41,319 bases of DNA, from contig JBGOTT010000002.1 of the NCBI GenBank assembly GCA_041476585.1, forward strand, positions 1-41,319, written 5' to 3'. Numbering within the stretch: position 1 is the first letter of the stretch; every line of letters begins with the position of its first letter. The translations under genes and the position numbers were made by a program. The notes under the pieces are model-generated. The model did not search any database and had not been told where the DNA came from. It was given only the letters and a program-made list of their open reading frames with translations. Origin of the DNA: Gammaproteobacteria bacterium (GTDB taxonomy: Bacteria; Pseudomonadota; Gammaproteobacteria; Burkholderiales; SG8-39). Of this stretch, positions 12,810 to 40,882 are shown one piece after another.

Positions 12810-13995
12810 GCCGGGCGTGCCCCTGGTCGCGCACGTGATTTATCGCCTCGACGTGGGAGGGTTGGAGAATGGACTGGTGAACCTGATCAACCGCATTCCC
12901 GCGGAGCGCTTCCGTCATGCGATCATCTGCCTGACCGGCTACTCGGAGTTCCGCCGGCGCATCCGGCGCAGCGACGTTCCGGTGTTCGCACTCGACAAGC
13001 CTGCAGGCAACAGCCCAATCACCCTTCTCAAGCTGTGGCGGTTATTGAGGCAGCTTCGCCCCGACATCGTCCACACGCGCAACCTCGCCGCGCTCGAGGG
13101 AACGCTGCCGGCGGCGCTGGCCGGGGTGCCGGTGCGCATCCACGGCGAGCACGGCCGCGACGTCGGGGACCTTGATGGCAGCAGCCCCAAGGCCCAGTGG
13201 CTGCGTCGCCTGTTCAAGCCGTTCGTGCACCAGCACATCGCGCTGTCGAAGGACCTGGAGCGCTACCTTCTCGAGAAGATCGGGGTGCCCCGCGCGAAGG
13301 TTGCGCAACTCTACAACGGGGTGGACACCGAGTTGTTCCATCCGGCGCACGGCGGGCGCGAGCCGCTGCCAGTCCACGCTTCGACCCCGGCCGATTTCGC
13401 TTCGCCCGACGCGTTCGTCATCGGCACTGTCGGCCGCATGCAGACGGTGAAGGACCAGGTCACGCTCGCTCGCGCGTTCGTGCTTCTGCTCGAGATCGCA
13501 CCGCAGGCTCGGCAGCGGTTGCGGCTGGTGATGGTCGGCGAAGGGCCGCTGCGCAAGCAGGTTGCCGACGTCCTGGACCAAGCCGGCGCGGGCAGGCTTG
13601 CCTGGCTTGCCGGCGAGCGCGACGACGTGCCGCGCATCATGCGGGGGCTGGACTTGTTCGTGCTTCCCTCACTCGCTGAAGGCATCTCCAACACCATCCT
13701 CGAAGCGATGGCGAGCGCTCTGCCGGTGGTCGCGACCGCGGTGGGCGGCAACCCCGAACTGGTGGACGAGGGGCGCACGGGCACCCTCGTTCCGCCGGAT
13801 GACCCGCAAGCGATGGCGCAGGCCATGCTGCGCTACTACACCGATGCGGCCGAATGCCGGCGCCAGGGACGCGAGGCCCGACGGATCGCGGAACAGCGTT
13901 TCAGCATGACAGCGATGGTGAGCGGCTACCTCGCTATCTATGACCGCATGTTGGAACGACGACATATTTCAGGGAGCGCGAATTGCACATCCTGA
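12787..13995 (+). CDS. GT4 glycosyltransferase, PEP-CTERM/exosortase-A-associated type
   Basis: Internal ATG at 12787 overlaps the xrtA end. AHVIYRLDVGGLENGLVNLIN matches the stp2-type N-terminus. The EX7E region is PSLAEGISNTILEAMASALPVV. Confidence 0.85.
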   Translation: MRAKLNSKPGVPLVAHVIYRLDVGGLENGLVNLINRIPAERFRHAIICLTGYSEFRRRIRRSDVPVFALDKPAGNSPITLLKLWRLLRQLRPDIVHTRNLAALEGTLPAALAGVPVRIHGEHGRDVGDLDGSSPKAQWLRRLFKPFVHQHIALSKDLERYLLEKIGVPRAKVAQLYNGVDTELFHPAHGGREPLPVHASTPADFASPDAFVIGTVGRMQTVKDQVTLARAFVLLLEIAPQARQRLRLVMVGEGPLRKQVADVLDQAGAGRLAWLAGERDDVPRIMRGLDLFVLPSLAEGISNTILEAMASALPVVATAVGGNPELVDEGRTGTLVPPDDPQAMAQAMLRYYTDAAECRRQGREARRIAEQRFSMTAMVSGYLAIYDRMLERRHISGSANCTS

Positions 13996-15014
13996 TCACC
14001 GGCGCCGCAGGTTTCATCGGCGCTGCGCTGGCCGCGCGCCTGCTCGAGCGCGGGGACACAGTCCACGGCATCGACAACTTGAACGACTATTACGACGTCA
14101 GCCTCAAACAGGCGCGGCTGGCGCTTTTGACGAAACATTCCAGATTCAGGTTCTCGCAACTCGACATCATCGACCGCGCGGCGATGGCAGACCTTTTCGC
14201 CGGCGAACGCTTCGACGCGGTCATGCATCTCGCCGCACAGGCAGGCGTGCGCTATTCGCTTGAGAATCCGGCTGCGTATATCGACGCCAATCTGGTGGGC
14301 TTCGGCAACGTGCTTGAAGGCGCGCGGCACTCGCGCGTCGGGCACTTGGTGTTTGCGTCTTCGAGTTCGGTGTATGGCGGCAACACCCGGCTGCCGTTCT
14401 CGGAGCACCACAATGTCGATCATCCGGTTTCGTTGTACGCCGCCACCAAGAAGGCCAACGAATTGATGGCGCACAGCTATGCGCACCTGTTCGGCCTTTC
14501 CTGCACCGGTCTGAGGTTTTTTACCGTTTACGGGCCGTGGGGGCGCCCGGACATGGCGCTGTTCAAGTTCACCGCCGGCATCATCGCAGGCACGCCGATT
14601 CCGGTATACAACGGCGGCATGATGGTGCGTGATTTCACTTATGTCGACGATATCGTCGATGGCGTGGTTCGGGTCATCGACCGGCCCGCCGCCGCCGATC
14701 CGCACTGGAGCGCCGACGCACCCGACCCCGCCGCGAGTTTCGCGCCATGGCGCATCTACAACATCGGCAACAGCCAGCCGGTGGACCTGATGCGCTACAT
14801 CGAGGTGCTCGAGCAATGCCTGGGCCGCAAAGCGCAGTTGCAGATGCTGCCGATGCAGCCAGGAGACGTGCAGGCGACGCTGGCCGATGTCACCGAGCTC
14901 GCCAAAGCAACCGGTTTCCGGCCGAACACGCCGGTGGAACAAGGCATCGCGAAATTCGTGGCGTGGTACCGGGACTACTACCGGGTCGGCCATGACGCAG
15001 GGGCGCTGACATGA
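13983..15014 (+). CDS. NAD-dependent UDP-glucuronate 4-epimerase (SDR family)
   Basis: TTG start overlapping the upstream gene. Rossmann motif ILITGAAGFIG. NLNDYYDVSLKQARL is typical of UDP-GlcA 4-epimerases. The catalytic motif is YAATKKANE (YxxxK). Confidence 0.8.
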   Translation: MHILITGAAGFIGAALAARLLERGDTVHGIDNLNDYYDVSLKQARLALLTKHSRFRFSQLDIIDRAAMADLFAGERFDAVMHLAAQAGVRYSLENPAAYIDANLVGFGNVLEGARHSRVGHLVFASSSSVYGGNTRLPFSEHHNVDHPVSLYAATKKANELMAHSYAHLFGLSCTGLRFFTVYGPWGRPDMALFKFTAGIIAGTPIPVYNGGMMVRDFTYVDDIVDGVVRVIDRPAAADPHWSADAPDPAASFAPWRIYNIGNSQPVDLMRYIEVLEQCLGRKAQLQMLPMQPGDVQATLADVTELAKATGFRPNTPVEQGIAKFVAWYRDYYRVGHDAGALT

Positions 15015-16342
15015 ACATCAGCATCATCGGGACCGGTTACGTCGGGCTGGTGACCGGCGCGTGCTTTGCCGAAATGGGCAACACCGTCACCTGCGTTGAC
15101 AACGACTCTGCCAAGGTAGATCGCCTGAAGAATGGCGAGCTGCCGATCCATGAGCCGGGGCTGGACAACATCGTCGCGAGCAATTTCCGCGAAGGCAGGC
15201 TGCGTTTTACCACCTCGCTTGCCGAAGCGGTCGCCGCCTCGAAGCTGTACTTCATCGCGGTCGGCACGCCGCCGAACGAGGATGGATCGGCCGACCTGCG
15301 CCATGTGCTGGAGGTTGCGCGCGAGCTGGGCCGGCTGATCTCGGGGCACTGCACGGTGGTCGACAAGTCCACGGTGCCGGTCGGCACCGCCGACGAGGTC
15401 AAGGCGGCGATCCGTGCCGAACTCGAGCGGCGCGGCGCCGAAGTCGATTGCGACGTGGTGAGCAATCCGGAGTTTCTCAAGGAGGGCGATGCGGTCGACG
15501 ATTTCATGCGGCCTGACCGCGTCGTCATCGGCACCGACAGCGAGCGCGCGGCCGAGCTGATGCGCAAGCTCTACGCGCCGTTCACGCGCAATCACGAGCG
15601 GATCCTGGTGATGGGCCTGCGCGACGCGGAGATGACCAAGTACGCGGCCAACTCGATGCTGGCGACCCGCATCTCGTTCATGAACGAGATCGCGAATCTG
15701 TGCGAACGCGCGGGTGTCGACGTGGAAAACGTGCGCAAAGGCATCGGGTCGGACGGCCGCATCGGCTATTCGTTCATCTACGCCGGTTGCGGCTACGGCG
15801 GCTCGTGTTTTCCGAAGGACGTGAGGGCCCTGGTTCACACCGCGCGCAGTTACGGCCTCGAGCCGATGATCCTGAACGCAGTCGAGGCGCGCAACGAGGC
15901 GCAGAAACAGCGCCTGTTCGGGAAGATCACCGCACGCTTTGGCGCCGACCTCGACGGGCTCGCATTCGCGGTCTGGGGGCTGGCGTTCAAGCCCGGCACC
16001 GACGACATGCGCGAGGCGCCGTCGGTGGTGCTGCTGCAGCAGTTGATCGACGCCGGTGCCCGTGTGAAAGCCTACGACCCGGTGGCAATGCAGGTCGCGC
16101 GCCGGATGCTACCTGCGCAATGGTTCGAAAGCGGACGGTTGACTCTCGCTGAACACCAGTACGACGCGCTCGACGATGTCGTGGCGCTCGCACTGGTGAC
16201 CGAATGGAAGCCGTTCCGCTATCCCGACTTCGGGGTGCTAAAGAAGCGCATGAAACAGCCGATCATCTTCGATGGGCGCAACCTTTACGACCCGGCGGAA
16301 TTACGCGGGCTCGGTTTCGAGTATTCCGGCATCGGCCGGTAG
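15011..16342 (+). CDS. ugd: UDP-glucose 6-dehydrogenase
   Basis: ATGA overlap with the upstream gene. IIGTGYVGLVTGACFAEMG, the catalytic GGSCFPKDV, and GLAFKPGTDDMREAP. Confidence 0.92.
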   Translation: MNISIIGTGYVGLVTGACFAEMGNTVTCVDNDSAKVDRLKNGELPIHEPGLDNIVASNFREGRLRFTTSLAEAVAASKLYFIAVGTPPNEDGSADLRHVLEVARELGRLISGHCTVVDKSTVPVGTADEVKAAIRAELERRGAEVDCDVVSNPEFLKEGDAVDDFMRPDRVVIGTDSERAAELMRKLYAPFTRNHERILVMGLRDAEMTKYAANSMLATRISFMNEIANLCERAGVDVENVRKGIGSDGRIGYSFIYAGCGYGGSCFPKDVRALVHTARSYGLEPMILNAVEARNEAQKQRLFGKITARFGADLDGLAFAVWGLAFKPGTDDMREAPSVVLLQQLIDAGARVKAYDPVAMQVARRMLPAQWFESGRLTLAEHQYDALDDVVALALVTEWKPFRYPDFGVLKKRMKQPIIFDGRNLYDPAELRGLGFEYSGIGR

Positions 16343-22121: not shown

Positions 22122-23567
22122 ATGGGCTCGTTCCGCAAGTCGCTGGTTCTGCAGTTCGCAGAACGCTATTCGGCGCTGGCCGTTCAGATCGTGTCGACCC
22201 TGATTCTCGCGCGGCTTTTGACACCACGCGAGATCGGCGTTTACTCGGTCGCCGCGGTGCTCGTCGGGCTCGCCCACGTCATGCGCGACTTCGGCGTCGG
22301 CCAGTACATCATGCAGGAGCGCGAGCTTACCGCAGAGCGCATCCGCACCGCGTTCGGCATTGCGATTTTGCTGGGGTGGCTGATTGCGCTGATTCTGTTC
22401 GGAGTTTCGCGATTCGCCGCGGATTTCTATCGTGAGCCCGGGGTCGGCGAGGCAATCGGTGTACTGGTTCTCAATTTTGTGCTGCTGCCGTTCACGACCG
22501 TGCAGGTCGCACTGTGGCGAAGGGACATGAACTTCGTGCAGCCCTACTACATCAAGACTGCCGGAGTGATCGTGTACGCGGTCACCGCGGTAACCCTCGC
22601 ATACGCAGGCTTCGGCTACATGAGCATGGCCTGGGCTGCGGTCGCGGGCGTAGCTACCAACGTGCTGATCGCGAGCACCTTCTGCCGTCACAGCCAGATG
22701 CAATGGCTGCCCGCATTCACGGAATTCAGGCGAGTATTTTCGATCAGCGGCATGGTGAGCGTCACGGTTGCGGCAAAGGAACTGGGGACCGCCGCGCCCG
22801 ATCTGATCATCGGGCGCATGCTCGGTTTCGCGGAAGTCGGTCTGTTCGGCCGGGCGACGGGGTTGGTCAGGATGTTCGAGCAGAACGTGAGCGCCGCGGT
22901 GTCGGGGGTGATGCTGCCGCATCTGTCAGCGGAGCATCGTCGGGGGATCCAGGTCGGAAGCATGTATCTCAGGGCAGCGAGCATGATCACCGTAGCGGCC
23001 TGGCCGTTCTTCGCGCTGCTGGGACTGATGGCCTACCCGGCGATCCGCCTGCTTTTCGGCCCGCAATGGGAAGCGGCGGCGCCGCTGCTGTCGATTCTCT
23101 GTCTGTGGGGCGCGAGCAACGCGCTGTTCTGCTTCGCGGGTTATACGCTGATCGCGGTCGGGGCGGCGCGCGCGAACATGCTGCTGGAATGCACCGTGCA
23201 GTCCGTCACTGTCGCGCTGCTGCTGGTCGGCGCCGTGTTCGGCCTGCACCAGATCGCGCTGGCCGTGACGTGCAGTTCCGCTCTGGCATTCGCCGTCTCG
23301 ACGAACGCGCTGCGGCGGCATATCGGAGTGTCGCTGAAGGATATGCTGGCCGCTACGCGGAAAAGTCTGGCGGTGACGGTGCTGAGCGGCTGCATTCCGC
23401 TCTGGGTGAGGTTGCAGATGGAGATCGGCCCGGACAGCTACGTGCTGCCGCTCGCGCTGGCCTCCGCCGGGGCCGTGGCGGGCTGGCTGCTCGGCGTGTT
23501 TGCGCTGGCCCATCCGGCGCGCGTCGAGATCCTGAATTTGCTGAAGCGAGGGCGTGGCCTTCGATGA
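22122..23567 (+). CDS. Wzx-like oligosaccharide flippase (MOP superfamily polysaccharide biosynthesis protein)
   Basis: 481 aa, hydrophobic throughout (about 12-14 predicted helices by eye). The N-terminus FAERYSALAVQIVSTLILARLLTPREIGVYS is typical of the Polysacc_synt family. Confidence 0.8.
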   Translation: MGSFRKSLVLQFAERYSALAVQIVSTLILARLLTPREIGVYSVAAVLVGLAHVMRDFGVGQYIMQERELTAERIRTAFGIAILLGWLIALILFGVSRFAADFYREPGVGEAIGVLVLNFVLLPFTTVQVALWRRDMNFVQPYYIKTAGVIVYAVTAVTLAYAGFGYMSMAWAAVAGVATNVLIASTFCRHSQMQWLPAFTEFRRVFSISGMVSVTVAAKELGTAAPDLIIGRMLGFAEVGLFGRATGLVRMFEQNVSAAVSGVMLPHLSAEHRRGIQVGSMYLRAASMITVAAWPFFALLGLMAYPAIRLLFGPQWEAAAPLLSILCLWGASNALFCFAGYTLIAVGAARANMLLECTVQSVTVALLLVGAVFGLHQIALAVTCSSALAFAVSTNALRRHIGVSLKDMLAATRKSLAVTVLSGCIPLWVRLQMEIGPDSYVLPLALASAGAVAGWLLGVFALAHPARVEILNLLKRGRGLR

Positions 23568-24484
23568 CCGACGAACCGTTCTTTCTGGTCGGATTCCAGC
23601 GCAGCGGGACCACCATGCTGCGCCTGATGCTGAACGCCCATCCGGACATCGGCATGCCGCATGACTCGGCCGAGCTGTGGTCCGGCTACCAGGCGAAACT
23701 CCCGGGCTACAACGATCTGCGCACCCCGGAGGACTCGCGAAGGATGATCGAGGACCTGCTGGCCGAGCCGCGCATCAAGGCGTGGCAGACCGAATTGCCG
23801 AAGCCGATGCTGCTGGCGCAACCGCTGCCGGACAGCTTTGCCGGCGTGATGCGGCGATTCCACGAGGCCTATCTCCACGCGCACGGCAAGCGGTACTGGG
23901 GCGACAAGAACACCGGAACACTGATCGAACTCGATCGACTCAATCGCCTGTTCCCGCAATGCAAGTTCATTCATCTGCTGAGAGACGGGCGCGATTGCGC
24001 GTTGTCGCACCTGTCCAAGGAATACATCTACGGCTACTCCAACGTGCTGCGCTGTGCGCTCGAATGGCGCGAACAGGTCACGCTATGCCGCAAGATGGGC
24101 GCGATGCTGCCCGCCGAGCGCTTCCTCGAACTGCGCTACGAAGACTTGCTGGCGGAGCCGGAGCGCTGGCTCGCGCGCATCTGCACGTTCCTCGGCGTAG
24201 CGTTTTCCCCTGCCATGCTCGAGTACTTCAAGGACGTCGGCAGCAATGTTCCGGACGAGCGGCGCAGCCTGTGGCCGATGATCGATCAGCCGCCGATGCA
24301 ATCCAACACCTACAAGTGGAAGACGAAGATGAGCCCGACCGACCGGGCGGTATTCGAGCGCATTGCCGGCGCGCTGCTGTGCGACTGCGGCTACGAAACC
24401 CTGCCGGCGCCGGTGACCGCCGGCCGCGTGCGCGAACTCTGGTATCACGTCCATGACCGCATCGCATGGCGCCTCAAACGCTGA
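23564..24484 (+). CDS. PAPS-dependent sulfotransferase
   Basis: ATGA overlap with the flippase stop. The 5'-PSB loop is FLVGFQRSGTTML and the 3'-PB motif is IHLLRDGRDCALS. No signal peptide. The track ORF start at 22514 is a spurious extension. Confidence 0.85.
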   Translation: MTDEPFFLVGFQRSGTTMLRLMLNAHPDIGMPHDSAELWSGYQAKLPGYNDLRTPEDSRRMIEDLLAEPRIKAWQTELPKPMLLAQPLPDSFAGVMRRFHEAYLHAHGKRYWGDKNTGTLIELDRLNRLFPQCKFIHLLRDGRDCALSHLSKEYIYGYSNVLRCALEWREQVTLCRKMGAMLPAERFLELRYEDLLAEPERWLARICTFLGVAFSPAMLEYFKDVGSNVPDERRSLWPMIDQPPMQSNTYKWKTKMSPTDRAVFERIAGALLCDCGYETLPAPVTAGRVRELWYHVHDRIAWRLKR

Positions 24485-24492: not shown

Positions 24493-25641
24493 ATGCTGCT
24501 GAAACGCATGTCGGTTGCGTTGCGCGATTGGTTGGGACGCGGGTTTCCGGTGTCGGATCCCGCAACGCATTTGCGCCAGACCATGCGCTGGCTGTGCCGC
24601 GCACAGGACGCGGCCGAGGGCGGCGGGGTTTCGCGCAGCTATGCGTTGCGCTGGATGCGCGCGCACCGGCGCCAGGGCTGGCTCGCCGCGTATCCGGAAA
24701 CCACGGGCTACATCATCCCGACGTTTCTCGCCTACGCCAGGCTTGTAGGCGAGAACGAGTTTCGCGCGCGGGCGTTGCGCATGGCCCAATGGGAAGCACG
24801 GGTGCAGATGGACAACGGTGCGGTGCAGGGGGGCGTGATCGGTTTTCCCCCCACTCCGGCGATTTTCAACACCGGGCAGGTGCTGTTCGGCTGGGCCGCG
24901 GCGTACAGGGAAACCGGGGAACAGGCATTTCTCGATGCGGCGCAGCGCGCGGCCGATTTTCTGACTGCGGCGCAGAACCCGGACGGCGCCTGGCGCCAGC
25001 ATGGTTCGCAGTACGCGCGCGCGGGCGTCAACGTCTACGACGCGCGCACGGCGTGGGGATTGCTCGAGGCCTCGCTGGTCACTGGCAAAGCCGTCCACCG
25101 CGATGCCGCGATACGCAACCTCGATTTCGTGCTGACCAAGCAGCAGCCCAATGGCTGGTACGCCGAGTGCTGTCTCGATGACAACCGGCGCCCGCTGTTG
25201 CATACCATCGCCTACACGATGGAAGGCCTGCTCGAAGCGGGCGCGATCCTCGATCTTGCGCGGTTCCGGGACGCCGCGCGCAAGGCCGCCGATGCGCTGT
25301 TGAAGCTGCAGCGACCGGACGGAAGCCTTGCAGGACGCTTCGATTCTGCTTGGCTGCCGGCTGCCGGCTGGAGCTGCCTGACCGGCGATGCGCAGACCGC
25401 GATCGTCTGGTTCCGGCTGGCCGAGATCACCGGCGAGGGCGCGTACGCGGACGCGGCGCGGCGCATGAACCGTTACCTCGCCGGCACCCAGGACTTGAGT
25501 TCGGGAGATCCCGGCATCCGGGGCGGTATCAAGGGTGCGCAGCCGATCTGGGCGGAATACGGCACCTACGAATACCCGAACTGGGCGGCCAAGTTCTTCG
25601 CGGATGCATTGATGCTCGAACTCGCCTGCCGGCGGCCATGA
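24493..25641 (+). CDS. alpha/alpha-toroid protein with prenyltransferase/squalene-cyclase-like repeats; function unknown
   Basis: Repeated QW-like motifs: AQNPDGAW, KQQPNGWY and LQRPDGSL. The spacing pattern is helical-repeat-like. No signal peptide. Confidence 0.5.
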   Translation: MLLKRMSVALRDWLGRGFPVSDPATHLRQTMRWLCRAQDAAEGGGVSRSYALRWMRAHRRQGWLAAYPETTGYIIPTFLAYARLVGENEFRARALRMAQWEARVQMDNGAVQGGVIGFPPTPAIFNTGQVLFGWAAAYRETGEQAFLDAAQRAADFLTAAQNPDGAWRQHGSQYARAGVNVYDARTAWGLLEASLVTGKAVHRDAAIRNLDFVLTKQQPNGWYAECCLDDNRRPLLHTIAYTMEGLLEAGAILDLARFRDAARKAADALLKLQRPDGSLAGRFDSAWLPAAGWSCLTGDAQTAIVWFRLAEITGEGAYADAARRMNRYLAGTQDLSSGDPGIRGGIKGAQPIWAEYGTYEYPNWAAKFFADALMLELACRRP

Positions 25642-31809: not shown

Positions 31810-31824
31810 CGCAAAGCCTGCGGG
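31810..31824. repeat. 15-nt direct repeat CGCAAAGCCTGCGGG, copy 2 (at the 5' boundary of the plus-strand rmlC fragment)
   Basis: Identical 15-mer exactly 90 nt downstream of copy 1. Confidence 0.9.
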
Positions 31825-32029
31825 GATGGCGCACGGCTTTCTGGTGCTGTCGGACAGCGCGGAGTTACTCTACAAGACGACAGACTACTGGGCGCCCGAG
31901 CACGAGCGCTGCATCATCTGGAACGATCCGACGCTGGCCATCGAATGGGCGGCCTTGCAGTGAGCGCCGCTGCTGTCGAACAAAGATGCCGCCGGGCAGG
32001 CGTTCCTTCAGGCGGAGGTGTTCGAGTAA
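31811..32029 (+). pseudogene. rmlC: 5'-truncated dTDP-4-dehydrorhamnose 3,5-epimerase fragment with an in-frame TGA
   Basis: KPAGMAHGFLVLSDSAELLYKTTDYWAPEHERCIIWNDPTLAIEW is followed by TGA (31961-31963). The same frame then continues as APLLSNKDAAGQAFLQAEVFE to TAA (32027-32029), a typical RmlC C-terminus. Confidence 0.75.
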
Positions 32030-32052: not shown

Positions 32053-33966
32053 TCAGGGGCCCTCGCCGATGATGCCCTGGCGCCGCAGCTCGGCCAGCAC
32101 CTGGTCGGCCGCGCCTTCCGGACTCAGGCTGGCGGTGAGGACGCGGATCTCCGGCGCCTCGGGCTCCTCGTAGGGGGAGTCGATACCGGTGAAGTTCTTG
32201 ATCTCGCCGCGCCGCGCCTTCCTGTAGAGCCCCTTGGCGTCGCGCTGCTCGGCGATGCCGAGCGGCGCGTCGACGAAGACCTCGATGAATTCGCCGTCCT
32301 TCAGCAGGCCGCGCGCCATGCGCCGCTCGGCGCGGAACGGCGAGATGAAGGCGGTGAGCACGATCAGGCCGGCATCGACCATCAGCTTCGCGACTTCGGC
32401 GATGCGCCGGATGTTCTCCACCCGGTCGGCGGCGGTGAAGCCGAGATCCTTGGTCAGGCCGTGACGCACGTTGTCGCCGTCGAGGATGTAGGTGTGGTGA
32501 CCCATCGCGTGCAGCTTCTTCTCCACCAGGTTGGCCAGCGTGGACTTGCCCGCGCCGGAAAGCCCGGTCAGCCACAGCACGCAGGCCTTCTGGCCCTTGA
32601 TCGCCGAGCGCGCCGCCCTGTCCACGTCGACGTGCTGCAGGTGGATGTTGTGCGCGCGGCGCAGCGCGAAGCGCAGCATCCCGGCGCCCACCGTGTGGTT
32701 GGTCAGGCGGTCGATCAGGATGAAGCCGCCTGTATCGCGGTTTTCCGCGTAGGGATCGAACGCGATCGGCTGGTCGAGCTCGAGCTCGCATACCCCGATC
32801 TCGTTCAGTTCGAGCTTCTCGGCGGCGAGGTGCTCCAGCGTGTTGACGTTGATCTGGTACTTGAGCGGCGCGATGGTCGCGGCAACGATCTTGGTGCCGA
32901 TCTTCATCGAGTAGGTGCGCCCGCGCAGCATCGGTTGTTCGCCCATCCAGACGACCGTCGCCTCGAACTGGCCGGCCACCTCGGCCGGAGCGTCCGCCGC
33001 CGCGATCAGGTCGCCGCGCGAGATGTCGATCTCGTCCTCGAGCGTGAGCGTGATCGACTGCGTGGCGACCGCCTGTTCGAGATCGCCGCCGGCGGCGACG
33101 ATGCGCGCGACGCGGCTCTCCCTGCCGGAGGGTTGCGCGCGCACGCGGTCTCCGGGGCGTACCGTGCCGCTGGCGATGGTGCCGGCGAAGCCGCGGAAGC
33201 CGAGGTCCGGCCGGTTGACCCACTGCACCGGGAGCCGGAACGGCAGCCGCTGCAGCCGCTGCTCGTCGATCTCGACGGTTTCCAGCCAGCCCATCAGCGT
33301 CGCGCCACGATGCCACGGCGTATGCGGGCTGGGGGCGATCAGGTTGTCGCCCTTCAGCGCCGACACCGGAAGGCAAGTGACCTCGGCGATGCCGAGCTGC
33401 GCCGCGAACTCGCGGTATTGCGCCTCGATCTCGCGGAAGCGCTTCTCCGAATAGTCGACCAGGTCCATCTTGTTGACCGCGAGCGCGACATGGCGGATGC
33501 CGAGCAGCGAAACCAGGTAGCTGTGGCGGCGCGTCTGGGTGAGCACGCCTTTGCGCGCGTCGATCAGCAGGATCGCCGCGTCCGCGGTCGAGGCGCCGGT
33601 CGCCATGTTGCGCGTGTACTGCTCGTGCCCCGGTGTGTCGGCGACGATGAACTTGCGCCGCTCGGTGGAGAAGAAGCGGTAGGCCACGTCGATGGTGATG
33701 CCCTGCTCGCGCTCGGCCGCCAGCCCGTCGACGAGCAGCGCGAAGTCGAGCGCGTCGCCCTGAGTGCCGAATTTCCTCGATTCGCCGGCCAGCGCGGCGA
33801 GCTGGTCGTCGAACAGTACCCGCGTCTCGTACAGCAGGCGTCCGATCAGCGTGCTCTTGCCGTCGTCCACGCTGCCGCAGGTGATGAAGCGCAGCAGGCT
33901 CTTGCGCTCGTGCGACTTCAGGTAGCCGTCGATGTTGCTCGCGATCAGGTCCGAGACGTGCGCCAT
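32053..33966 (-). CDS. cysNC: bifunctional sulfate adenylyltransferase subunit 1 / adenylylsulfate (APS) kinase (CysN-CysC fusion, NodQ-like)
   Basis: The start at 33966 ([11 protein letters not shown]) overlaps the cysD stop by 1 nt (TGATG). GTPase motifs [18 protein letters not shown] and NKMD. The C-terminal APS kinase P-loop is [13 protein letters not shown]. The track ORF start at 34677 is a spurious extension. Confidence 0.92.
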
Positions 33967-35198
33967 CAGAAGTAGCCTTCCTGCTTCTTCTTCTCCATCG
34001 ACGCGGCCGCGTCGCGATCGATCACGCGGCCCTGGCGCTCCGAGGTGCGCGCCAGCAGCATCTCCTGGATGATCGCCGGCAGCGTGTCCGCCGCGGATTC
34101 GATCGCCCCGGTCAGCGGATAGCAGCCCAGGGTGCGGAAACGCACCTTCTTCATCATCGGCACCTCGCGCTCGCCGAGCGGCATGCGCTCGTCGTCGACC
34201 ATGATCAGCGTGCCGTCGCGCTCCACCACCGGGCGCGGCCTGGCGAAGTACAGCGGCACCACGGGAATGTTCTCGACGCGGATGTACTGCCAGACATCGA
34301 GCTCGGTCCAGTTGGACAGCGGAAACACGCGCATCGACTCGCCCTTGTGCTTGCAGGTGTTGTAGAGCCGCCAGAGCTCGGGGCGCTGGTTCTTGGGGTC
34401 CCAGCGATGCTGCGCCGAGCGGAACGAGAACACGCGCTCCTTGGCGCGCGACTTCTCCTCGTCGCGCCGCGCGCCGCCCAGCGCGGCGTCGAATCCGTGC
34501 TTGTCCAGCGCCTGCTTCAGCGCCTGCGTCTTCATCACGTCGGTGTGGATCGCCGACCCGTGCACGAAGGGATTGATGCCCATCGCGGTCCCCTCGTCGT
34601 TGACGTGCACGATCAGGTCCATGCCGGCCTCGACGACGGCGCGGTCGCGGAACGCGTACATGTCGCGGAACTTCCACGTGGTGTCGACGTGCAGCAGCGG
34701 GAACGGCGGCCTCGCCGGGTAAAAGGCCTTTCGCGCCAAGTGCAGCATCACCGAACTGTCCTTGCCGATCGAGTAGAGCATTACCGGTTTGGCGGCCTCG
34801 GCGACCACCTCGCGCATGATGTGGATGGCTTCCGCCTCGAGCCGCTGCAGGTGGGTCAAGGTCGACAACTTCGTGCAGGGCGCGATCGGATCGACCTTGT
34901 CGCCCGGGCTGGAAGGGTCGGAATTCCGGTTCGTGAAAATTTGATTAATGTTGTTGGCGGCTTGGCCGGTTTCTGGGGCAATCGCCTTCCTCCTCACTCC
35001 CCTGCCGCGCGGACCTACCGGAACGGCGCCCCAGCCGCCGGCCTGGTAGGCTTTCAGTGCGCGGATCACCGTGGGTTGGCTGAGACCAGCTTTCGCAGCC
35101 GTTTCTACAATGGAGAAGCCGGAGAGCCTGAATTTCACCGCTTGGACCCTGCGCTCGTTAAGCGCTTCGACGGTAACGTTACGGCCATCTGTTGGCAT
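33966..35198 (-). CDS. cysD: sulfate adenylyltransferase subunit 2 (CysD, NodP-like) with an in-frame 110-aa N-terminal extension containing a transposase-like HTH
   Basis: The CysD core runs from [21 protein letters not shown], with PP-loop [13 protein letters not shown], to the C-terminal [12 protein letters not shown] at 34868 would give a canonical 300-aa CysD. Upstream and in frame lies [43 protein letters not shown] (HTH), with ATG at 35198 and no stop codon between them. Confidence 0.8.
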
Positions 35199-35231
35199 GG
35201 CGTCAAAAATATCGAAACAAAAGTTGTTGCA

Positions 35232-35260
35232 AGATTAAACAAATAACAACAGCGTGTCAA
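35232..35260 (-). promoter_or_regulatory. candidate sigma-70 promoter for the HTH-cysD-cysNC unit
   Basis: On the minus strand: TTGACA (35255-35260) - N17 - TAATCT (35232-35237), about 34 nt upstream of ATG 35198. It lies in the only AT-rich gap between the heparinase-like gene and cysD. Confidence 0.5.
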
Positions 35261-35369
35261 CGTAACGCTATCCGCCAACATGAAGCTTTGCAAATGGACC
35301 CGACCGGATTCTCGAACAGATCATCCCGATCGCCCGCGCGGCAGGCGATGCGCGGCTCGAGGTCTATTC

Positions 35370-37757
35370 TCAATCGGTGTCCGTCCGCGTTGCATCCATC
35401 GGGACAACCAGCCCCGTGATCGACACCTGGTCCGCAGCGCAGCCGCTGGTCGCGATGCCGCCCGTTTCCGCCCGGAGTTCCAGTTCGCGCAGCGCTCCGG
35501 AGCGCGCTTCGACCACGATGCGCTGCGCATCGACAGTCACTCGCGTGCCATCGAGCCAGCCGATGCGCCGGGCGGCACCGCCCTGGCAGCGCAGCAACAG
35601 CAGCGCGCCCGCAAAGTTGATTCCCCAGGCCGAGATTTCCTTGCCGTCAGGGTCCGCGTTCAGCAGAAGGTAGTCCTGCCGATCGCCGCAGGTGACGCGG
35701 AATCCGTAGCCGGTGCCGCCGATCCCGAGCGCCTCGACTTGCGGCGCGGACTGAACGGCTGCGCCGGCCATGAGCAGGGTGGCGATGAGGGAATGCGACC
35801 CGTCCACCGCCATCCTCAGCATCGGAGCCGGCTCGAGTTGTCCGTAGCGTTCCGACAGCCATCCGGCCAGCGGAGCGTGCGAGCCGCAGAGAATGCTGCA
35901 TTCTCCGGCAGCTTCGCTGGCGGCGATCCACAAGCGCTGTCCCGCGCACTCCACCAGGAAGGCGCGTGCGCCCCGGGCGTCGAGCCGCGCGTCGCGCGCG
36001 AGCTGGTACTGGATCCAGGCTCGACCGGCGCCCGCCGCCTGCGGCAGCACGTCGTAGCACAGCCAGTAGCCGCCGCGCACGTGCACAACGCCGCGGCGAT
36101 GCCCCGCATAGGCAGTCTGCCCCGCGATCGCGCTCTCCACCCACGCCAGCACTGCGCCGCTGCGGCAAGCCCGCCCGACCGCCCTCGACTGGATCGGAGT
36201 CAGCGGAAAGTCACCGCTGCGGGGACCCAACGGATCCAGGCCGTCGAGGCAGAAACCGCTGTGCGCGCCCGCTCCGCGCAGGTGCGCGCGCCACGGCGGC
36301 GTTCCTGCCGGCCAGTTTCCCTCGCACGAGCGATAGGTATAGGTGCCCGGGTCTGCGATCACCGCGTGACCGGCGAGGTTGAGGCACACGCTGTGCAGGT
36401 CGGCATGCATGTGCCCCGGCATGACCGCCGCTTCCGGCGCGGGGCCGGTGCGCAGCACCAGGCGGGTTGCCGGGTCGGTCTCGGGGAACACGAAATAGCC
36501 GCCGTCCGGGAAAGCGCGAAATGCGCCTGCGGCAGGCTCGCGCGGCGGCGGCGCGAGCCTGCCTCCGAGCAGCCAGAAGGCGCGTTCCGAGCCGCGCGCG
36601 TCGGACTGCGGCGGCGGGCAATCGGGCGCAAACAGCGCGCGCAGGATCTCCCGCGGCGCCGACGACGCCAGCGCGTCGAATCCGTCGAGCGCGAACATCG
36701 CGCCCTCGACGCCGTCGCCTTGCGCCAGGGTCGCGGTCTCGGGACCCGACAGCTCGGCCTGGAACTCGAGCATGCGCCGCAGACGCTCGATCACCCAGTC
36801 CTCGGGCTCGGCGCCATTGCGGCGCTTGAGCAGCACATAGGCTGCGGCGAGTTCGCAGGCCAGATCGTGATAGCGCACGGAATGCTCGAAGCTCGTGCCG
36901 TCTTCGTAGATCTGGCGCCGCAACTCGCGAAGCCACACCGCTTCGCCCGCGCGTTTCCATTCTTCAGCGCCGGCGAATTCCGGAAGCAGGGTGCCCAGAT
37001 ACCAAAGCGCGAATCCATCCGCCAGCAGATGATTGTTCGCAAACGACGTGCCGAGCCGCTTCGCCAGGAAGCGCGCGTCATGCAGCAGTATGCGCAGGAT
37101 GGTGAACTCGATTTCCGTGGTGTCTTTCTCCGAGGTAGACAGGAACAACCACGCCCAGCTCAGCGCAATCGCGCGGTAGACCGCAATCAGACAGCTCGAA
37201 TAGCCGTCCGGATTGCGCGTGGCTTCGGTGTAGGCGATCCAGGAATCGAGATAAGTCTGCAGTTTCTCCTCCCTCGGTGCGCCGTAGGCGATCGCACGCG
37301 CAATGCGTACGGCGCCTGCGAAGTGATGGACGCGATCACGGGGAAGCTGATCCTCTCCCGGGCCCCGGGGGATTTCAGCCCACTGCGCAACCGAGGCCGG
37401 CGTGCTCGCCGCAGCTATTTCCTGTCTGCTCAGCGCTCGTTCGCGCCAGGACGGGTATTGCTGCGTGATTGCATCGAGCGCCTGGTCAAGTTCCTCTGCC
37501 CCGATGAAGAACCGTGGCGTGCGCCGCTGGCGGAACTGCCGAACCAGCAGCAGCTTCGCCTCGTGCAACGCGCCACGCCGGAACGAATCCTGTACCGCGC
37601 TTATAGCGGGAAGATCGGCGCGCAATTGACCGAGCACCTCCTCATCGCCCGGAAAGCGGACACACAGGTCTTCCGCTGGTGCGACGCGGCGCAATCTTCG
37701 CACCATGGAACCGATGGCGCGCCGCACTCGTGACGCCAGGCTCACGCCGGTTCGCAA
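35370..37757 (-). CDS. heparinase II/III-like (alginate-lyase-like N-terminal toroid + Hepar_II_III C-terminal domain) protein
   Basis: The middle region has NNHLLADGFALWYLG and the C-terminal region has MPGHMHADLHSVCLNLAGHAVIADPGTYTY (the GH-H-D...D-G-Y-Y signature). The start is uncertain (TTG 37757 or ATG 37706). Neither candidate N-terminus has a hydrophobic signal peptide. Confidence 0.75.
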   Translation of the reverse strand: MRTGVSLASRVRRAIGSMVRRLRRVAPAEDLCVRFPGDEEVLGQLRADLPAISAVQDSFRRGALHEAKLLLVRQFRQRRTPRFFIGAEELDQALDAITQQYPSWRERALSRQEIAAASTPASVAQWAEIPRGPGEDQLPRDRVHHFAGAVRIARAIAYGAPREEKLQTYLDSWIAYTEATRNPDGYSSCLIAVYRAIALSWAWLFLSTSEKDTTEIEFTILRILLHDARFLAKRLGTSFANNHLLADGFALWYLGTLLPEFAGAEEWKRAGEAVWLRELRRQIYEDGTSFEHSVRYHDLACELAAAYVLLKRRNGAEPEDWVIERLRRMLEFQAELSGPETATLAQGDGVEGAMFALDGFDALASSAPREILRALFAPDCPPPQSDARGSERAFWLLGGRLAPPPREPAAGAFRAFPDGGYFVFPETDPATRLVLRTGPAPEAAVMPGHMHADLHSVCLNLAGHAVIADPGTYTYRSCEGNWPAGTPPWRAHLRGAGAHSGFCLDGLDPLGPRSGDFPLTPIQSRAVGRACRSGAVLAWVESAIAGQTAYAGHRRGVVHVRGGYWLCYDVLPQAAGAGRAWIQYQLARDARLDARGARAFLVECAGQRLWIAASEAAGECSILCGSHAPLAGWLSERYGQLEPAPMLRMAVDGSHSLIATLLMAGAAVQSAPQVEALGIGGTGYGFRVTCGDRQDYLLLNADPDGKEISAWGINFAGALLLLRCQGGAARRIGWLDGTRVTVDAQRIVVEARSGALRELELRAETGGIATSGCAADQVSITGLVVPMDATRTDTD

Positions 37758-37873
37758 CCCTTGATCCGCACGCGCGGTGAGCGCGCGGCAGCGGAGCCCT
37801 GAGCCCGGGAAGTCTGGCTATACTTGCGGCTGCAGCGATCGTTCATCGTCGCTCAATTGAACGAGACCGCAGC

Positions 37874-39127
37874 GTGAGACACGCCTTGTTTGTCGTTTTT
37901 CACTATCCGCCCGAAGCAAGCAGCAGCGGGGTGTTGCGTACGCTTAAATATACCCGGTATTTGCCCGAGCACGGTTGGCGCACGACCGTACTCACGCTGA
38001 ACCGGGACGCATACGAGGTGACGGATTCGAAGCTGGAACGGCAGATCCCGGAACAGGCGCGCGTAATCCGCACCCGCTATCTGAACGCCAAGACGCATCT
38101 TTCGCTGTTCGGCATTTATCCGCCGATTCTCGCGGTCCCCGACCGCTGGATCGGCTGGTACCCTTGGGCGGTGGCGGCGGGGCGGCGCGCGCTGCGCGAA
38201 GATCCGTTCGACCTGGTTTATTCGACCAGCCCGGTCGCGACCGCGCACCTCATCGGGCGTTCGCTCGCGCGCAGTGCACGGGTGCCGCTGGTCACGGACT
38301 TTCGCGATCCCTGGTACGAGGAGCCGCCGGAGCCGGGCACGCCCGGCGTGGTGCACTGGTTTGCCCCGCGGCTCGAGCGGCGCGTAATTGCGGCTGCAAG
38401 CCATGTGGTGACCAGCACGACGCATCTGCGCGACATGCTGCAGGCGCGCTATCGCGAGCAGCCGGCGGACAAGTTCACCGCGATCCTGAACGGCTATGAC
38501 GAGGCAGACTTCGCCGCACTGCCCGCCGCGCTGGCACGCAACGACGGGCGGATGCTGGTGGTGCACGCGGGCAACATCAATCCGGAGTTCCGCGATCCGC
38601 GCCCGCTGTTTCGCGCGGCGAGGACTCTGGCCGACCAGGGCCGCATCGATGCTTCCCGGTTGCTGTTCCGGTTCATCGGCGGCGGTGCGTTCGGTGAATC
38701 CGGATCGATGCGGCAATGCCTGGCTGAAACGGGGTTGCGCGATAGCGTCGAGTTTCTGCCGCGGGTGCCGTATGAGGCGGCGCTGCAGGAGCTGGCGCGG
38801 GCCGACCTGCTGCTGTTGCTGCAGGCATCCGACGATACCGTCGGGCTGGTTCCGGCCAAGCTCTACGAATACCTGCGCGCGCAGAAACCGGTGCTGGCCC
38901 TGCTGTTTCCCGGGGCCACCGGCGAGGTGTTGAAACAGACCGGCGGCGGCTGGGCGGTCAACCCGGGCGAGGTCGCGGAGCTCGAGCGCGTGATGGGCGA
39001 AGCTTTTGCGAGATGGAGCGACGGCAGTCTGGCGGGGTACGCGGCCCGCCTGGCGGTGTTGCGGCAGTTCGATCGGCGCACGTTGACGGCGAAGCTGGCC
39101 GGCTTGTTCGATGCGCTGGCGCGGTGA
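37874..39127 (+). CDS. glycosyltransferase (GT4-like)
   Basis: GTG start. FVVFHYPPEASSSGVLRTLKYTRYLPEHGW N-terminus. The C-terminal half is GT-B-like: LLLLLQASDDTVGLVPAKLYEYLRAQKPVLAL. Confidence 0.7.
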   Translation: MRHALFVVFHYPPEASSSGVLRTLKYTRYLPEHGWRTTVLTLNRDAYEVTDSKLERQIPEQARVIRTRYLNAKTHLSLFGIYPPILAVPDRWIGWYPWAVAAGRRALREDPFDLVYSTSPVATAHLIGRSLARSARVPLVTDFRDPWYEEPPEPGTPGVVHWFAPRLERRVIAAASHVVTSTTHLRDMLQARYREQPADKFTAILNGYDEADFAALPAALARNDGRMLVVHAGNINPEFRDPRPLFRAARTLADQGRIDASRLLFRFIGGGAFGESGSMRQCLAETGLRDSVEFLPRVPYEAALQELARADLLLLLQASDDTVGLVPAKLYEYLRAQKPVLALLFPGATGEVLKQTGGGWAVNPGEVAELERVMGEAFARWSDGSLAGYAARLAVLRQFDRRTLTAKLAGLFDALAR

Positions 39128-39143
39128 GACCGGACCTGCACGC

Positions 39144-39893
39144 ATGATGCACGGCGAATCGTTTGAAAAGCGCTGGCGCGCGCGATTCGAGGGCTTCGCG
39201 CAGCACAGCGACGATGATGCCGGCATCGCGGGCTGGTCGCGCGGCGGTCTCGAGGCGCGCATGCGCAACTTTGCGCGAATCTGGCGCACCGACCGGCCGG
39301 GTGCGCGCTGGCTCGATGCCGGCTGCGGAGCGGGAACGTATTCGCGTTTTATCGCCGACCGTGGCATTCAGGTGTGCGGTTTTGATTATTCCTTCCCGAC
39401 GATCCAGAAGGCGCGCATGCGCGCTGCTCCCGGCATTGTCTGGGGCGTGGCCGATGTAACGCGCCTGCCGGCGAAAACGGGATCGTTTGACGGCGCGGTC
39501 TGCTTCGGCGTGACGCAGGCGCTCGCCGACTCGGCGCCGGCGCTGGGCGAGCTGTGCAGGGCGGTGCGGCCCGGAGGCGCGATCTGGATCGATGCGCTCA
39601 ACCGCTGGTGCCTGCCCAACCTGCTCGATACGTGGCTGCGCCGGCTGCGCGGCCGGCCGCTGCACCTGCGCTATGAGTCGCCGCGCAAACTGCGGGAATT
39701 GTTCCAAGCCAATGGCCTGGTCGACGTCCATCTGCATTGGGTGCCGATTCTGCCGGCGCGCTTGCGGCATTTGCAGTGGTTGATGGAGGCGCGCGCCACT
39801 CGATGGTTGATTCACGTGCTGCCCTGGCTCGGAACGCTGGTGAGCCACGCGTTTGTTCTCACCGGCCGCCGCGGCGGAGAAAAACCGCAGTGA
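39144..39893 (+). CDS. class I SAM-dependent methyltransferase
   Basis: ATG at 39144 (the track ORF starts at 39111). WLDAGCGAGTYS (motif I), GFDYS, FDGAVCFGV and VRPGGAIWI. Confidence 0.8.
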   Translation: MMHGESFEKRWRARFEGFAQHSDDDAGIAGWSRGGLEARMRNFARIWRTDRPGARWLDAGCGAGTYSRFIADRGIQVCGFDYSFPTIQKARMRAAPGIVWGVADVTRLPAKTGSFDGAVCFGVTQALADSAPALGELCRAVRPGGAIWIDALNRWCLPNLLDTWLRRLRGRPLHLRYESPRKLRELFQANGLVDVHLHWVPILPARLRHLQWLMEARATRWLIHVLPWLGTLVSHAFVLTGRRGGEKPQ

Positions 39894-39910
39894 CCGATCG
39901 TGCGAGGTCG

Positions 39911-40882
39911 ATGAGTCTTGTGCTGCTCAAGGCGTTGGCCGGGCTGTTTTCGCCCTCCGGCGCGAGGGCGCGGCTGTCGATCCTGATATTCCACCGGGTG
40001 CTGCGCGCACCGGACCCTTTGCTGAACGACGACCTCGACGCGGCGACCTTCGATGCGTTGATGCAGGCACTGGCTGAAGGCTGCAACGTATTGCCGCTTT
40101 CGGAGGCGGTCCGGCGGCTGCGTGCGAAGAGCCTTCCCACTCGCGCCGCGTGCGTCACCTTCGACGACGGCTACGCCGACAACTTCGAGGTCGCGCTGCC
40201 GGTGCTGCAACGCCACGGAATCACCGCCACCTTCTTCATTTCCACCGGATTCCTCGATGGCGGACGCATGTGGAACGACACGATCATCGAATCGGTGAAG
40301 CGCGCCGCGGGGCCGCAACTCGAACTCGCGGCGGCCGGACTGGGCAGCTTTTCTCTGGCGGGCATCGGCGAGCGCCGCAGCGCCGCGCTGGCGCTGATCA
40401 GGGCTGTGAAACATCGCGAGCCTGCCGAGCGGGAGGCGCTGGTGGCGCAGATCGCCGATGCGGCAAACGCGGCGTTGCCCGATGACCTCATGATGACCGC
40501 GCAGCAGGTGCGCGGGCTGCGCGCCGCCGGCATGGAGATCGGCGGGCACACCGTCCGCCATCCGATCCTGGCGCGGCTCGACTGCGCCGCGGCCCGGCGC
40601 GAGATCGCCGACGGCAAGGGCGCGCTGGAGGGCATCACCGGCGAGCGGGTGGAGCTTTTTGCGTATCCGAATGGCAAGCCCCGCGCGGATTATTCCGCCG
40701 AGCACGTCGCCTTGGTCAGGGAGATCGGCTTTACCGCCGCGGTCTCGACGGCCGCGGGCGTGGCCGATTGCGGCAGCGATCTGTATCAGCTGCCGCGCTT
40801 CACGCCCTGGGACCGGACGCCGGTACGGTTCATGCTGCGTCTCACCCGGAATCTGCTGCGCAGGCAGCGCGAGAAGGTCTAG
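39911..40882 (+). CDS. polysaccharide deacetylase (NodB homology domain)
   Basis: ATG at 39911; the alternative GTG at 39890 overlaps the upstream stop. CVTFDDGYADNFEVALPVLQRHGITATFF is NodB motifs 1-2. GGHTVRHP and FAYPNGK are also present. Confidence 0.8.
   Translation: MSLVLLKALAGLFSPSGARARLSILIFHRVLRAPDPLLNDDLDAATFDALMQALAEGCNVLPLSEAVRRLRAKSLPTRAACVTFDDGYADNFEVALPVLQRHGITATFFISTGFLDGGRMWNDTIIESVKRAAGPQLELAAAGLGSFSLAGIGERRSAALALIRAVKHREPAEREALVAQIADAANAALPDDLMMTAQQVRGLRAAGMEIGGHTVRHPILARLDCAAARREIADGKGALEGITGERVELFAYPNGKPRADYSAEHVALVREIGFTAAVSTAAGVADCGSDLYQLPRFTPWDRTPVRFMLRLTRNLLRRQREKV

Follow-up and report, generated by a model that had tools for sequence, protein, structure and literature searches.

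The window analyzed here is a 41,319-nucleotide stretch of DNA from a gammaproteobacterial genome (GenBank assembly GCA_041476585.1, contig JBGOTT010000002.1, positions 1 to 41,319). By its family matches it is a canonical XrtA/PEP-CTERM exopolysaccharide locus, i.e., of the exosortase type that employs the Wzx/Wzy pathway. Matches to NCBIfam models cover both the machinery of such a pathway (export protein, chain-length determinant, tyrosine kinase, outer-membrane protein, ATPase, exosortase A, FemAB protein and Wzx) and its sugar part (WecB, XrtA-type deacetylase, stp2 glycosyltransferase, XrtA amidotransferase, a glycosyltransferase of family 4 (GT4) and a CapK-like ligase). On the minus strand of this locus lies a gene for a heparinase II/III-like protein, which is the subject of this study and most likely encodes a cytoplasmic tailoring enzyme of the XrtA-type Wzx/Wzy exopolysaccharide pathway.

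The open reading frame (ORF) encodes 795 residues when read from a TTG codon at 37757 and 778 residues from an alternative ATG at 37706. In the alignment the TTG appears as the better start, because the region upstream of the ATG aligns with the conserved basic N-terminal helix of the homologues. Residue numbers from Asn224 to Asn483 are nevertheless counted from the ATG (778-aa numbering). On the plus strand, an overlapping Arg-rich ORF (35280-37733) without a Pfam match was rejected as a high-GC shadow. Searching the window's own genome revealed one copy of the heparinase-like gene, with both Pfam domains matched there too.

Domain structure, fold and active site

The Pfam family PF16889 (Hepar_II_III_N) matches residues 45-346 with 67.7 bits against a cut-off of 22, and PF07940 (Hepar_II_III_C) matches residues 412-653 with 75.2 bits against a cut-off of 24. 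These scores uphold the ORF and the heparinase II/III assignment of a preliminary description of the locus, which had been made from the sequence alone. An AlphaFold model generated from 42 homologues (predicted local distance difference test (pLDDT) 92.5, predicted template modelling score (pTM) 0.93) contains three domains, a toroid followed by beta-sandwich domains. Model and fold search agree with the N-terminal alpha/alpha toroid proposed in that description, and the two motifs it had quoted, HMHAD and GTYTY, were located in the frame (Table 1).

The top fold match of the model was heparinase III of polysaccharide lyase family 12 (PL12; structure 4fnv), with a Z score of 27.1 and a root-mean-square deviation of 3.8 over 594 aligned residues. 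Other heparinase III structures (5jmd and 4mmh) scored Z 24-25, and the Foldseek E values of the heparinase III PL12 matches ranged from 1e-20 to 4e-23. Lyases of the families PL15, PL17 and PL33, GAGase II/VII, the Dp0100 lyases and heparinase II were found at Z 19.5-22, human dermatan sulfate epimerase 1 (DS-epi1; 6hzn) at Z 18.4 over 585 residues (Foldseek 7e-16) and the PL5 alginate lyase AlgL (4ozv) at Z 14.4, the latter covering the toroid only. The NCBIfam equivalog models for HepC were missed by far (NF045573, 41.9 bits for a cut-off of 700; NF045572, 31.9 bits for a cut-off of 600). The model PF06662 (C5-epim_C), which represents the Glce-type glucuronyl C5-epimerase, did not match the heparinase-like protein at E values up to 0.1.

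HMMER alignments to 4mmh and 5jmd place Asn225, Tyr279 and His280 on the catalytic Asn240, Tyr294 and His295 of heparinase III, while the counterpart of the PL12 catalytic His424 (P. heparinus numbering) is placed at motif level only. The crystallised chain and the published heparinase III numbering are offset by 24 residues, which presumably equals the signal peptide of that enzyme. Conservation was assessed in 118 homologues of about 35-45% identity overall. Fourteen positions are invariant in this set, namely Asn224, Asn225, His226, Tyr279, His432, Tyr458 and eight others, and partial conservation was seen for His434 (94%), Asp436 (98%), Asp/Glu452 (85%), His482 (94%) and Asn483 (95%). For the HMHAD motif this corresponds to 100% for the first His, 94% for the second His and 98% for the Asp. 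By alignment, the window protein retains the full heparinase III (PL12) catalytic set. The second His and the Asp of HMHAD are candidate metal ligands, with an H-x-H as in heparinase II and DS-epi1, and the combination of H-x-H, an acidic residue and the His/Asn pair resembles the metal site of these two enzymes (PMC8006597).

The conservation pattern bears on the idea that the protein has no catalytic function and serves the assembly machinery as a sugar-binding or scaffolding subunit. Such a subunit would fit with the adjacency of Wzx genes in many loci (see below), and nothing else speaks specifically for it. With fourteen residues, including the whole catalytic set, invariant in 118 sequences of such low identity, a non-catalytic role is hardly credible.

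Cellular location

Neither start of the window protein is followed by a hydrophobic signal or by the h-region of a twin-arginine translocation (TAT) signal. No signal peptide was detected in 47 N-termini, comprising the window protein, 41 aligned homologues and 5 further relatives, with a maximum 12-residue Kyte-Doolittle mean of 1.58. Export via Sec or TAT was rejected, as the h-region is absent from every N-terminus examined, and the earlier statement that both candidate starts lack a signal peptide can thus be extended to 46 relatives. The N-terminus is predicted to form a cationic amphipathic helix with a hydrophobic moment of 0.81 and a net charge of +7. For the N-termini of the homologues, the median hydrophobic moment is 0.54, and 74% of them exceed the 95th percentile of their own protein. 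Judged from these sequence features, the protein is predicted to be cytoplasmic and is probably held on the inner membrane face by its N-terminal helix.

The preliminary description had regarded a cytoplasmic location as unexpected for a lyase. The location stands, but the oddity does not, since cytoplasmic lyases of this fold exist: exolytic oligo-uronate lyases of the families PL15 and PL17 are cytoplasmic.

Table 1 Features of the window and of related loci in other genomes.
Feature	Position	Strand	Basis and remarks
Heparinase II/III-like gene	35370..37757	-	ORF and translation; PF16889 and PF07940; AlphaFold model
Cationic amphipathic N-terminal helix (ASRVRRAIGSMVRRLRRV)	37683..37736	-	Candidate membrane-surface anchor, not a signal peptide
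Alpha/alpha toroid domain (Hepar_II_III_N)	36552..37649	-	Pfam; model helices H21 to H379; aligns with heparinase III toroid
NNH motif	37029..37037	-	Second Asn aligns with catalytic Asn240 of Pedobacter heparinase III, His with His241 (HMMER against 4mmh and 5jmd); invariant in 118/118
RYH motif	36867..36875	-	Tyr aligns with catalytic Tyr294 of heparinase III, following His with His295
HMHAD motif	36399..36413	-	First His invariant, candidate C-domain catalytic His; motif-level alignment to 5jmd
GTYTY motif	36333..36347	-	Last Tyr invariant; aligns with GSYVY of heparinase III
Gene similar to 4-epimerases of the short-chain dehydrogenase/reductase (SDR) type, and UDP-glucose 6-dehydrogenase (ugd)	13983..16342	+	NCBIfam; uronic acid precursor source
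Wzx flippase	22122..23567	+	NCBIfam
Sulfotransferase dependent on 3'-phosphoadenosine 5'-phosphosulfate (PAPS)	23564..24456	+	PF13469 2.4e-35; hidden Markov model (HMM) of recurrent family 1e-109
Alpha/alpha toroid protein	24493..25641	+	Model, fold search, co-occurrence
cysD and fused cysN/cysC (PAPS supply)	32053..35198	-	Downstream of heparinase-like gene, same strand
Divergent intergenic region	37758..37873	.	116 nt between heparinase-like gene and GT4 operon
Divergent GT4 glycosyltransferase	37874..39127	+	Pfam
S-adenosylmethionine (SAM)-dependent methyltransferase of divergent module	39111..39893	+	Pfam; family in 4 homologous loci
Polysaccharide deacetylase, NodB type, weakly HfsH-like	39737..40882	+	Family in 11 to 13 homologous loci
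GT4::heparinase-like fusion loci	L051:8001-11594, L052:8001-11525		Independent contigs
Sister-clade loci	L046:6548-9887, L047:6255-9593, L048:7690-11036		

Distribution of the family and its neighbours

Word-index searching returned 194 matches, the nearest at 44% identity. An exhaustive profile search of 50%-identity cluster representatives yielded about 110 proteins better than 1e-140, 1,615 better than 1e-30 and 14,564 better than 1e-3. Carriers are found among Nitrosococcus, Candidatus Accumulibacter, Rhodanobacter, Halieaceae, Pelagibius, Acidobacteriota and Anaerolineae, and the cultured ones include Nitrosococcus halophilus Nc 4, Parahaliea mediterranea and a Pelagibius species. The window protein belongs to a biosynthetic branch of the Hepar_II_III superfamily that is widespread and uncharacterised, with PL12 as the nearest family. 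Searching the literature brought up no bacterial protein of this biosynthetic clade that has been characterised. Within any group the subfamily is sparse, being present in 3 of 401 sampled genomes of the window's class. With so few carriers a genome-level association test is underpowered, and proximity at the level of loci is the informative measure. This class sample, which also underlies two tallies given below (222/400 and 21/400), includes a few unpublished genomes (G296, G141, G039 and G308), on which none of the specific conclusions depends.

To describe the neighbourhoods, all ORFs of 43 loci were clustered, and counts refer to those 33 loci from other genomes that span at least 12 kb. 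The clustered loci, as well as nine loci with called genes and Pfam labels, are all Wzx/Wzy synthesis loci. In the nine loci with Pfam labels, and in the list of the 28 to 32 neighbour families that recur most often, neither a sugar importer nor a KduI/KdgK-type gene was named, and a catabolic role was rejected on this basis. A biosynthetic rather than catabolic context, as claimed for the window at the outset, was thus found in every locus examined.

The most frequent direct neighbour of the heparinase-like gene is the Wzx flippase gene, which is present in 22/33 loci and directly adjacent in 14. Second comes a methyltransferase-kinase (APH) fusion, present in 16 of the loci and adjacent in 10. 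The family of the window's divergent GT4 glycosyltransferase occurs in 14 loci by clustering (15 by tblastn; adjacent in 5), Wzy_C and an AsnB-type amidotransferase in 14 loci each (both adjacent in 0), the family of the window's second deacetylase in 11 (adjacent in 1) and the toroid family in 10 (adjacent in 2). Genes for cysD or cysNC were absent within 10 kb in all 33 loci. The methyltransferase-kinase fusion joins a SAM methyltransferase and an APH-type kinase in about 690 residues (L022:12371-14431, L001:12624-14720, L043:6609-8327); the window is devoid of it and encodes a stand-alone methyltransferase only. Kelch-type beta-propeller proteins also recur in several loci (L001:8741-9979, L002:5337-6515, L002:15392-17701).

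Two sulfotransferase families recur near the heparinase-like gene. One of them, which includes the sulfotransferase of the window, has HMM matches in 18 loci. The other is present in 10 loci, and in 6 of these its gene overlaps or directly adjoins the heparinase-like gene. Overlapping or abutting sulfotransferase genes are seen, e.g., in L043, L045 and L049. When mapped on a tree of 31 full-length proteins (one pair of rows being identical), a sulfotransferase within 10 kb accompanies 16 proteins, is found on both deep branches and requires at least 6 to 7 changes. The fraction of 16/31 is a lower bound, as the window's own sulfotransferase lies 10.9 kb away and hence outside the 10-kb flank. 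Sulfotransferases are common in the class (222/400 genomes, roughly two per genome), and by rough arithmetic the chance of finding one within 10 kb of a random gene is a few percent. The glycosaminoglycan-like logic that the preliminary description had read from the enzymes of this locus gains support, in that sulfotransferases recur beside the family in many unrelated genomes.

Organization of the window

The genes that the preliminary description had listed around the heparinase-like gene were all found: cysD and cysNC downstream, the divergent GT4, methyltransferase and deacetylase genes, ugd, the 4-epimerase-like SDR gene, a second deacetylase and the sulfotransferase (Table 1). With this gene content, the window is predicted to make UDP-glucuronic acid (UDP-GlcA) and probably also UDP-galacturonic acid (UDP-GalA).

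In other genomes, the typical order is Wzx, heparinase-like gene, sulfotransferase, toroid (L043, L045, L049 and L050). In the window, an MBOAT gene comes after the toroid gene in the Wzx/sulfotransferase/toroid operon. Between this operon and the cysNC-cysD-heparinase-like genes lies a stretch of lower GC content (26001-32000; 0.57-0.60 compared to about 0.65). It looks like an insertion that splits one module, because the Wzx, sulfotransferase, toroid and heparinase-like genes are contiguous in other genomes. The window therefore appears to hold the same Wzx/heparinase-like/sulfotransferase/toroid module as these genomes, interrupted by the lower-GC stretch together with the PAPS genes.

The adjacency of the PAPS genes, to which the preliminary description had drawn attention, exists in the window but is not conserved, with cysD and cysNC near the gene in 0/33 homologous loci. 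It is incidental and local to this window. An AT-rich, promoter-like stretch is located at about 35200-35290, between the stop codon of the heparinase-like gene and the cysD frame; no terminator was found in this gap. Sequence composition thus suggests that cysD/cysNC probably have their own promoter. A single operon with the PAPS genes was rejected on the grounds of this promoter-like gap before cysD and of the lack of any homologue with cysD or cysNC within 10 kb. At its N-terminal end, the cysD frame is extended by about 110 in-frame codons (34869-35198, minus strand) with a match to HTH_28/HTH_23 (9.8e-7), and homology to CysD starts near 34868. In the 116-nt divergent intergenic region on the other side of the heparinase-like gene, no sigma-70 consensus was found.

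Fusions to glycosyltransferases and a sister clade

The exhaustive profile search also uncovered two proteins of about 1,180 residues, with a complete GT4 glycosyltransferase joined to the N-terminal side of the heparinase-like domains; no fused form was returned by the word-index search. Both fusion contigs share the order Wzy, Wzx, AsnB, GT4, fusion, and one of them contains a nucleotide-sugar dehydrogenase 4 kb away. The GT4 part of the fusions was considered as an orthologue of the window's divergent GT4, which was rejected. Since GT4 enzymes draw on nucleotide sugars at the cytoplasmic face, the fusion settles in which compartment the heparinase-like part resides and links its activity to glycan assembly.

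These proteins speak to the role of an AlgL-like lyase, which had been raised in the preliminary description. Such an enzyme would have to be exported by an unrecognised route and would cut the exported polymer in the periplasm. Alginate operons show that a synthesis operon may encode a lyase, and the lyase catalytic set of the window protein is intact. However, the 47 N-termini lack any Sec or TAT signal, relatives are fused to cytoplasmic GT4 domains and the gene overlaps genes of cytoplasmic sulfotransferases. In addition, AlgL is a single-domain PL5 toroid, whereas the model of the window protein is multidomain. Taken together, periplasmic trimming is very improbable.

A sister clade of proteins of about 660 residues was detected at E values of 1e-41 to 1e-52 against the family profile. 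Its members have the same catalytic residues and no signal peptide. In 3/3 loci examined, from unrelated genomes, they adjoin a nucleotide-sugar 6-dehydrogenase and a GT4 gene, which ties heparinase-like proteins to the supply of uronic acids. One of these loci, L046, also holds two ORFs with sulfotransferase-like N-termini. In the window's own clade, five heparinase-like loci of four carrier genomes were inspected for the dehydrogenase. It lies 10-35 kb away at 2/5 and further away or on another contig at 3/5.

The sister clade, together with the GT4 fusions, raises the possibility of an exclusively nucleotide-sugar enzyme, which would convert a UDP- or GDP-D-uronic acid into its L-configured C5 epimer to be moved by a partner GT4. 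This proposal is a sub-case of the epimerase reading developed below. A related case might be the pair GnlA/GnlB, postulated to make UDP-N-acetyl-L-galactosaminuronic acid (UDP-L-GalNAcA) (PMC9676051); GnlB was compared here by description only. GnlB was later found to be heparinase-like in fold, but the same preprint doubts its role in sugar synthesis (bioRxiv 10.64898/2026.07.20.739706). Moreover, the window's clade adjoins Wzx, sulfotransferases and methyltransferase-kinase fusions and not dehydrogenases, the long cleft of the fold binds chains in all known members and the amphipathic N-terminus points to a membrane-bound substrate. We consider restriction to nucleotide sugars to be quite unlikely.

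The companion toroid protein

The toroid protein encoded next to the sulfotransferase is a cytoplasmic-looking (alpha/alpha)6 toroid (model pLDDT 85). Its top fold matches are unsaturated glucuronyl hydrolases of glycoside hydrolase family 88 (GH88; 3wiw, Z 33.7, Foldseek 1.4e-10), nearly tied with cellobiose 2-epimerases at Z 32. A profile search returned squalene-cyclase repeats at 8e-7, followed by a weak match to the GH88 enzyme 1vd5 (0.04). Pfam matches over 13 members of the toroid family were weak and mixed, with GH127 in 10, squalene cyclase in 10, C5-epim_C in 6 and GH88 in 5 of them. The toroid gene is close by in all three class-sample genomes that carry the heparinase-like subfamily, one of them showing the order heparinase-like gene, sulfotransferase, toroid. 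Overall, it is present in 21/400 genomes of the class, 18 of which have no heparinase-like gene.

If the toroid protein is a GH88-type enzyme, an editing pair of lyase and hydrolase becomes attractive. The heparinase-like protein would then be a genuine beta-eliminating lyase in the cytoplasm that edits stalled or mis-built lipid-linked intermediates containing uronate, and the toroid protein would take off the terminal unsaturated sugar, thereby releasing the lipid carrier. The complete PL12 catalytic set, best matches that are true lyases and the co-localization of the toroid gene in 3/3 class-sample carriers are consistent with this scenario, as are the unsaturated glucuronyl hydrolases at the top of the toroid's fold matches. 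Yet the GH88 match is nearly tied with the 2-epimerases and most toroid carriers are without the heparinase-like gene. Polymer is absent from the cytoplasm in Wzx/Wzy pathways, the gene is placed among decorating enzymes, and it is difficult to see why an enzyme that reverses glycosylation should be fused to a glycosyltransferase. We therefore regard an editing lyase as unlikely on balance, yet as a serious rival with more weight than the periplasmic or the nucleotide-sugar enzyme.

Proposed function

The fold, the conserved catalytic residues, the cytoplasmic location, the biosynthetic context and the links to sulfotransferases, GT4 and the dehydrogenase are directly supported by the analyses above. 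The choice between lyase and epimerase posed by the preliminary description proved to be the right one, and the evidence leans moderately to a cytoplasmic epimerase coupled to sulfation. Tentatively, we favour a cytoplasmic uronate C5-epimerase built on lyase machinery and acting at either substrate level, lipid-linked unit or nucleotide sugar; we hold this assignment to be quite possible, if short of probable.

In Wzx/Wzy pathways, uronates occur in the cytoplasm in two forms only, as nucleotide sugars and within the lipid-linked repeat unit. The enzyme would act before the flippase, on a uronic acid with a free O4, which could be the terminal residue just added to the undecaprenyl-diphosphate-linked repeat unit or a nucleotide sugar. 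The conserved Asn would neutralise the uronate carboxylate, with Tyr and His serving as the base and acid that remove the C5 proton. As O4 of a terminal uronate carries no leaving group, proton removal would be followed by re-protonation from the other face, so that C5 is epimerised instead of the chain being cleaved. Products would be L-iduronic acid (L-IdoA) from GlcA or L-altruronic acid (L-AltA) from GalA, and a neighbouring sulfotransferase or glycosyltransferase might then lock the new configuration. From this chemical reasoning and from the sequence features described above, we infer an epimerase reaction, the level of its substrate and an association with the membrane.

Several observations weigh against an epimerase. 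The computed data do not separate it from a lyase: true lyases come closest in both sequence and fold, and none of the catalytic residues of a lyase is missing. No bacterial enzyme of the heparinase fold reported as an epimerase was found in the literature. The GH88-like toroid gene co-travels with the heparinase-like gene, and GH88 enzymes are classical partners of lyases. About half of the loci have no sulfotransferase within 10 kb, and not all of them have a uronate-forming dehydrogenase nearby. Furthermore, the window protein itself deviates at two conserved positions. His278, which is found in 116/118 homologues directly before the catalytic Tyr, is replaced by Arg (36873-36875), and Asn483, a candidate metal-site position with Asn in 112/118, is replaced by Ser (36258-36260).

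In its widest form, the proposal would be that a bacterial cytoplasmic C5-epimerase of lyase fold acts together with PAPS-dependent sulfotransferases, sometimes fused to a glycosyltransferase, on lipid-linked units, giving sulfated glycosaminoglycan-like exopolysaccharides with uronates of the L-iduronate or L-guluronate type. It would be the prokaryotic counterpart of dermatan sulfate epimerase, possibly its evolutionary source, and might provide the genetic basis of the 'sulfated GAG-like' polymers of granular sludge (GAG, glycosaminoglycan). This picture as a whole is doubtful. Chemical measurements have shown sulfated GAG-like polymers in granular sludge from wastewater, for which the biosynthetic genes are described as unknown (PMC10483923, PMC7356697). 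A member of the heparinase-like family occurs in Accumulibacter, and the heparinase-like loci offer candidate genes for these polymers.

Heparinase-fold genes recur in bacterial capsule, O-antigen and exopolysaccharide loci, and the curators of Acinetobacter K loci raise the same puzzle for GnlB. If the proteins are epimerases, they would explain L-configured uronic acids from Wzx/Wzy pathways, provide a bacterial parallel to the tailoring of animal glycosaminoglycans, in which epimerisation is coupled to sulfation, and offer soluble bacterial tools to engineer heparin- or dermatan-like polymers. If they are lyases, they would represent an undescribed editing step of polysaccharide assembly in the cytoplasm.

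Comparison with known systems

Heparinase III/HepC (PL12; Pedobacter heparinus 4MMH, Bacteroides 4FNV and 5JMD) is the best match in sequence and fold (Z 24-27), has the same toroid plus beta-sandwich architecture and shares the catalytic Asn, Tyr and C-domain His with the window protein. However, the two are only 16-18% identical, and the window protein remains far under the HepC cut-offs. It also differs from heparinase III in lacking a signal peptide, in its biosynthetic instead of catabolic locus and in about 100 extra C-terminal residues that form a further beta domain. In addition, it shows H-x-H where the Bacteroides lyase (5jmd) has H-C-Q.

AlgL (PL5) is likewise a lyase-fold enzyme from a synthesis operon, with an NNH-type motif in an alpha/alpha toroid. 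In contrast to the window protein with its three domains and no signal, AlgL consists of one toroid domain, carries a signal peptide and works in the periplasm as part of a synthase-dependent pathway. A role of the AlgL type is thus unlikely here, given also the GT4 fusions.

GnlB/WeeF, from Acinetobacter K loci and the emulsan cluster of A. venetianus RAG-1, is again a heparinase-fold protein in a capsule-synthesis locus and the closest parallel in the literature, the likeness being drawn from published descriptions only. It has been postulated to help make UDP-L-GalNAcA (PMC9676051), and its heparinase-like fold has been described as 'suggesting a different functional role' (bioRxiv 10.64898/2026.07.20.739706). 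GnlB is paired with GnlA and not with sulfotransferases, and is likewise uncharacterised.

Human DS-epi1 (6HZN; PMC8006597) shares the fold; it has a His/Tyr catalytic set, an H-x-H metal motif and a place in a biosynthetic pathway with sulfotransferases. His226, Tyr279 and His432-x-His434, the candidate counterparts of these residues, are conserved in the homologues of the window protein. Identity is 11% without a sequence-level match, and DS-epi1 contains DUF4962 (PMC8006597) where the window protein contains Hepar_II_III_N. DS-epi1 works on the finished chain in the Golgi lumen, and for the window protein epimerase activity is a prediction. In DS-epi1, a lyase fold with the His/Tyr set serves as an epimerase, and according to the authors of its structure small changes can turn a lyase into an epimerase (PMC8006597). 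The pairing of epimerase and sulfotransferase proposed here would parallel that of the animal dermatan and heparan sulfate epimerases.

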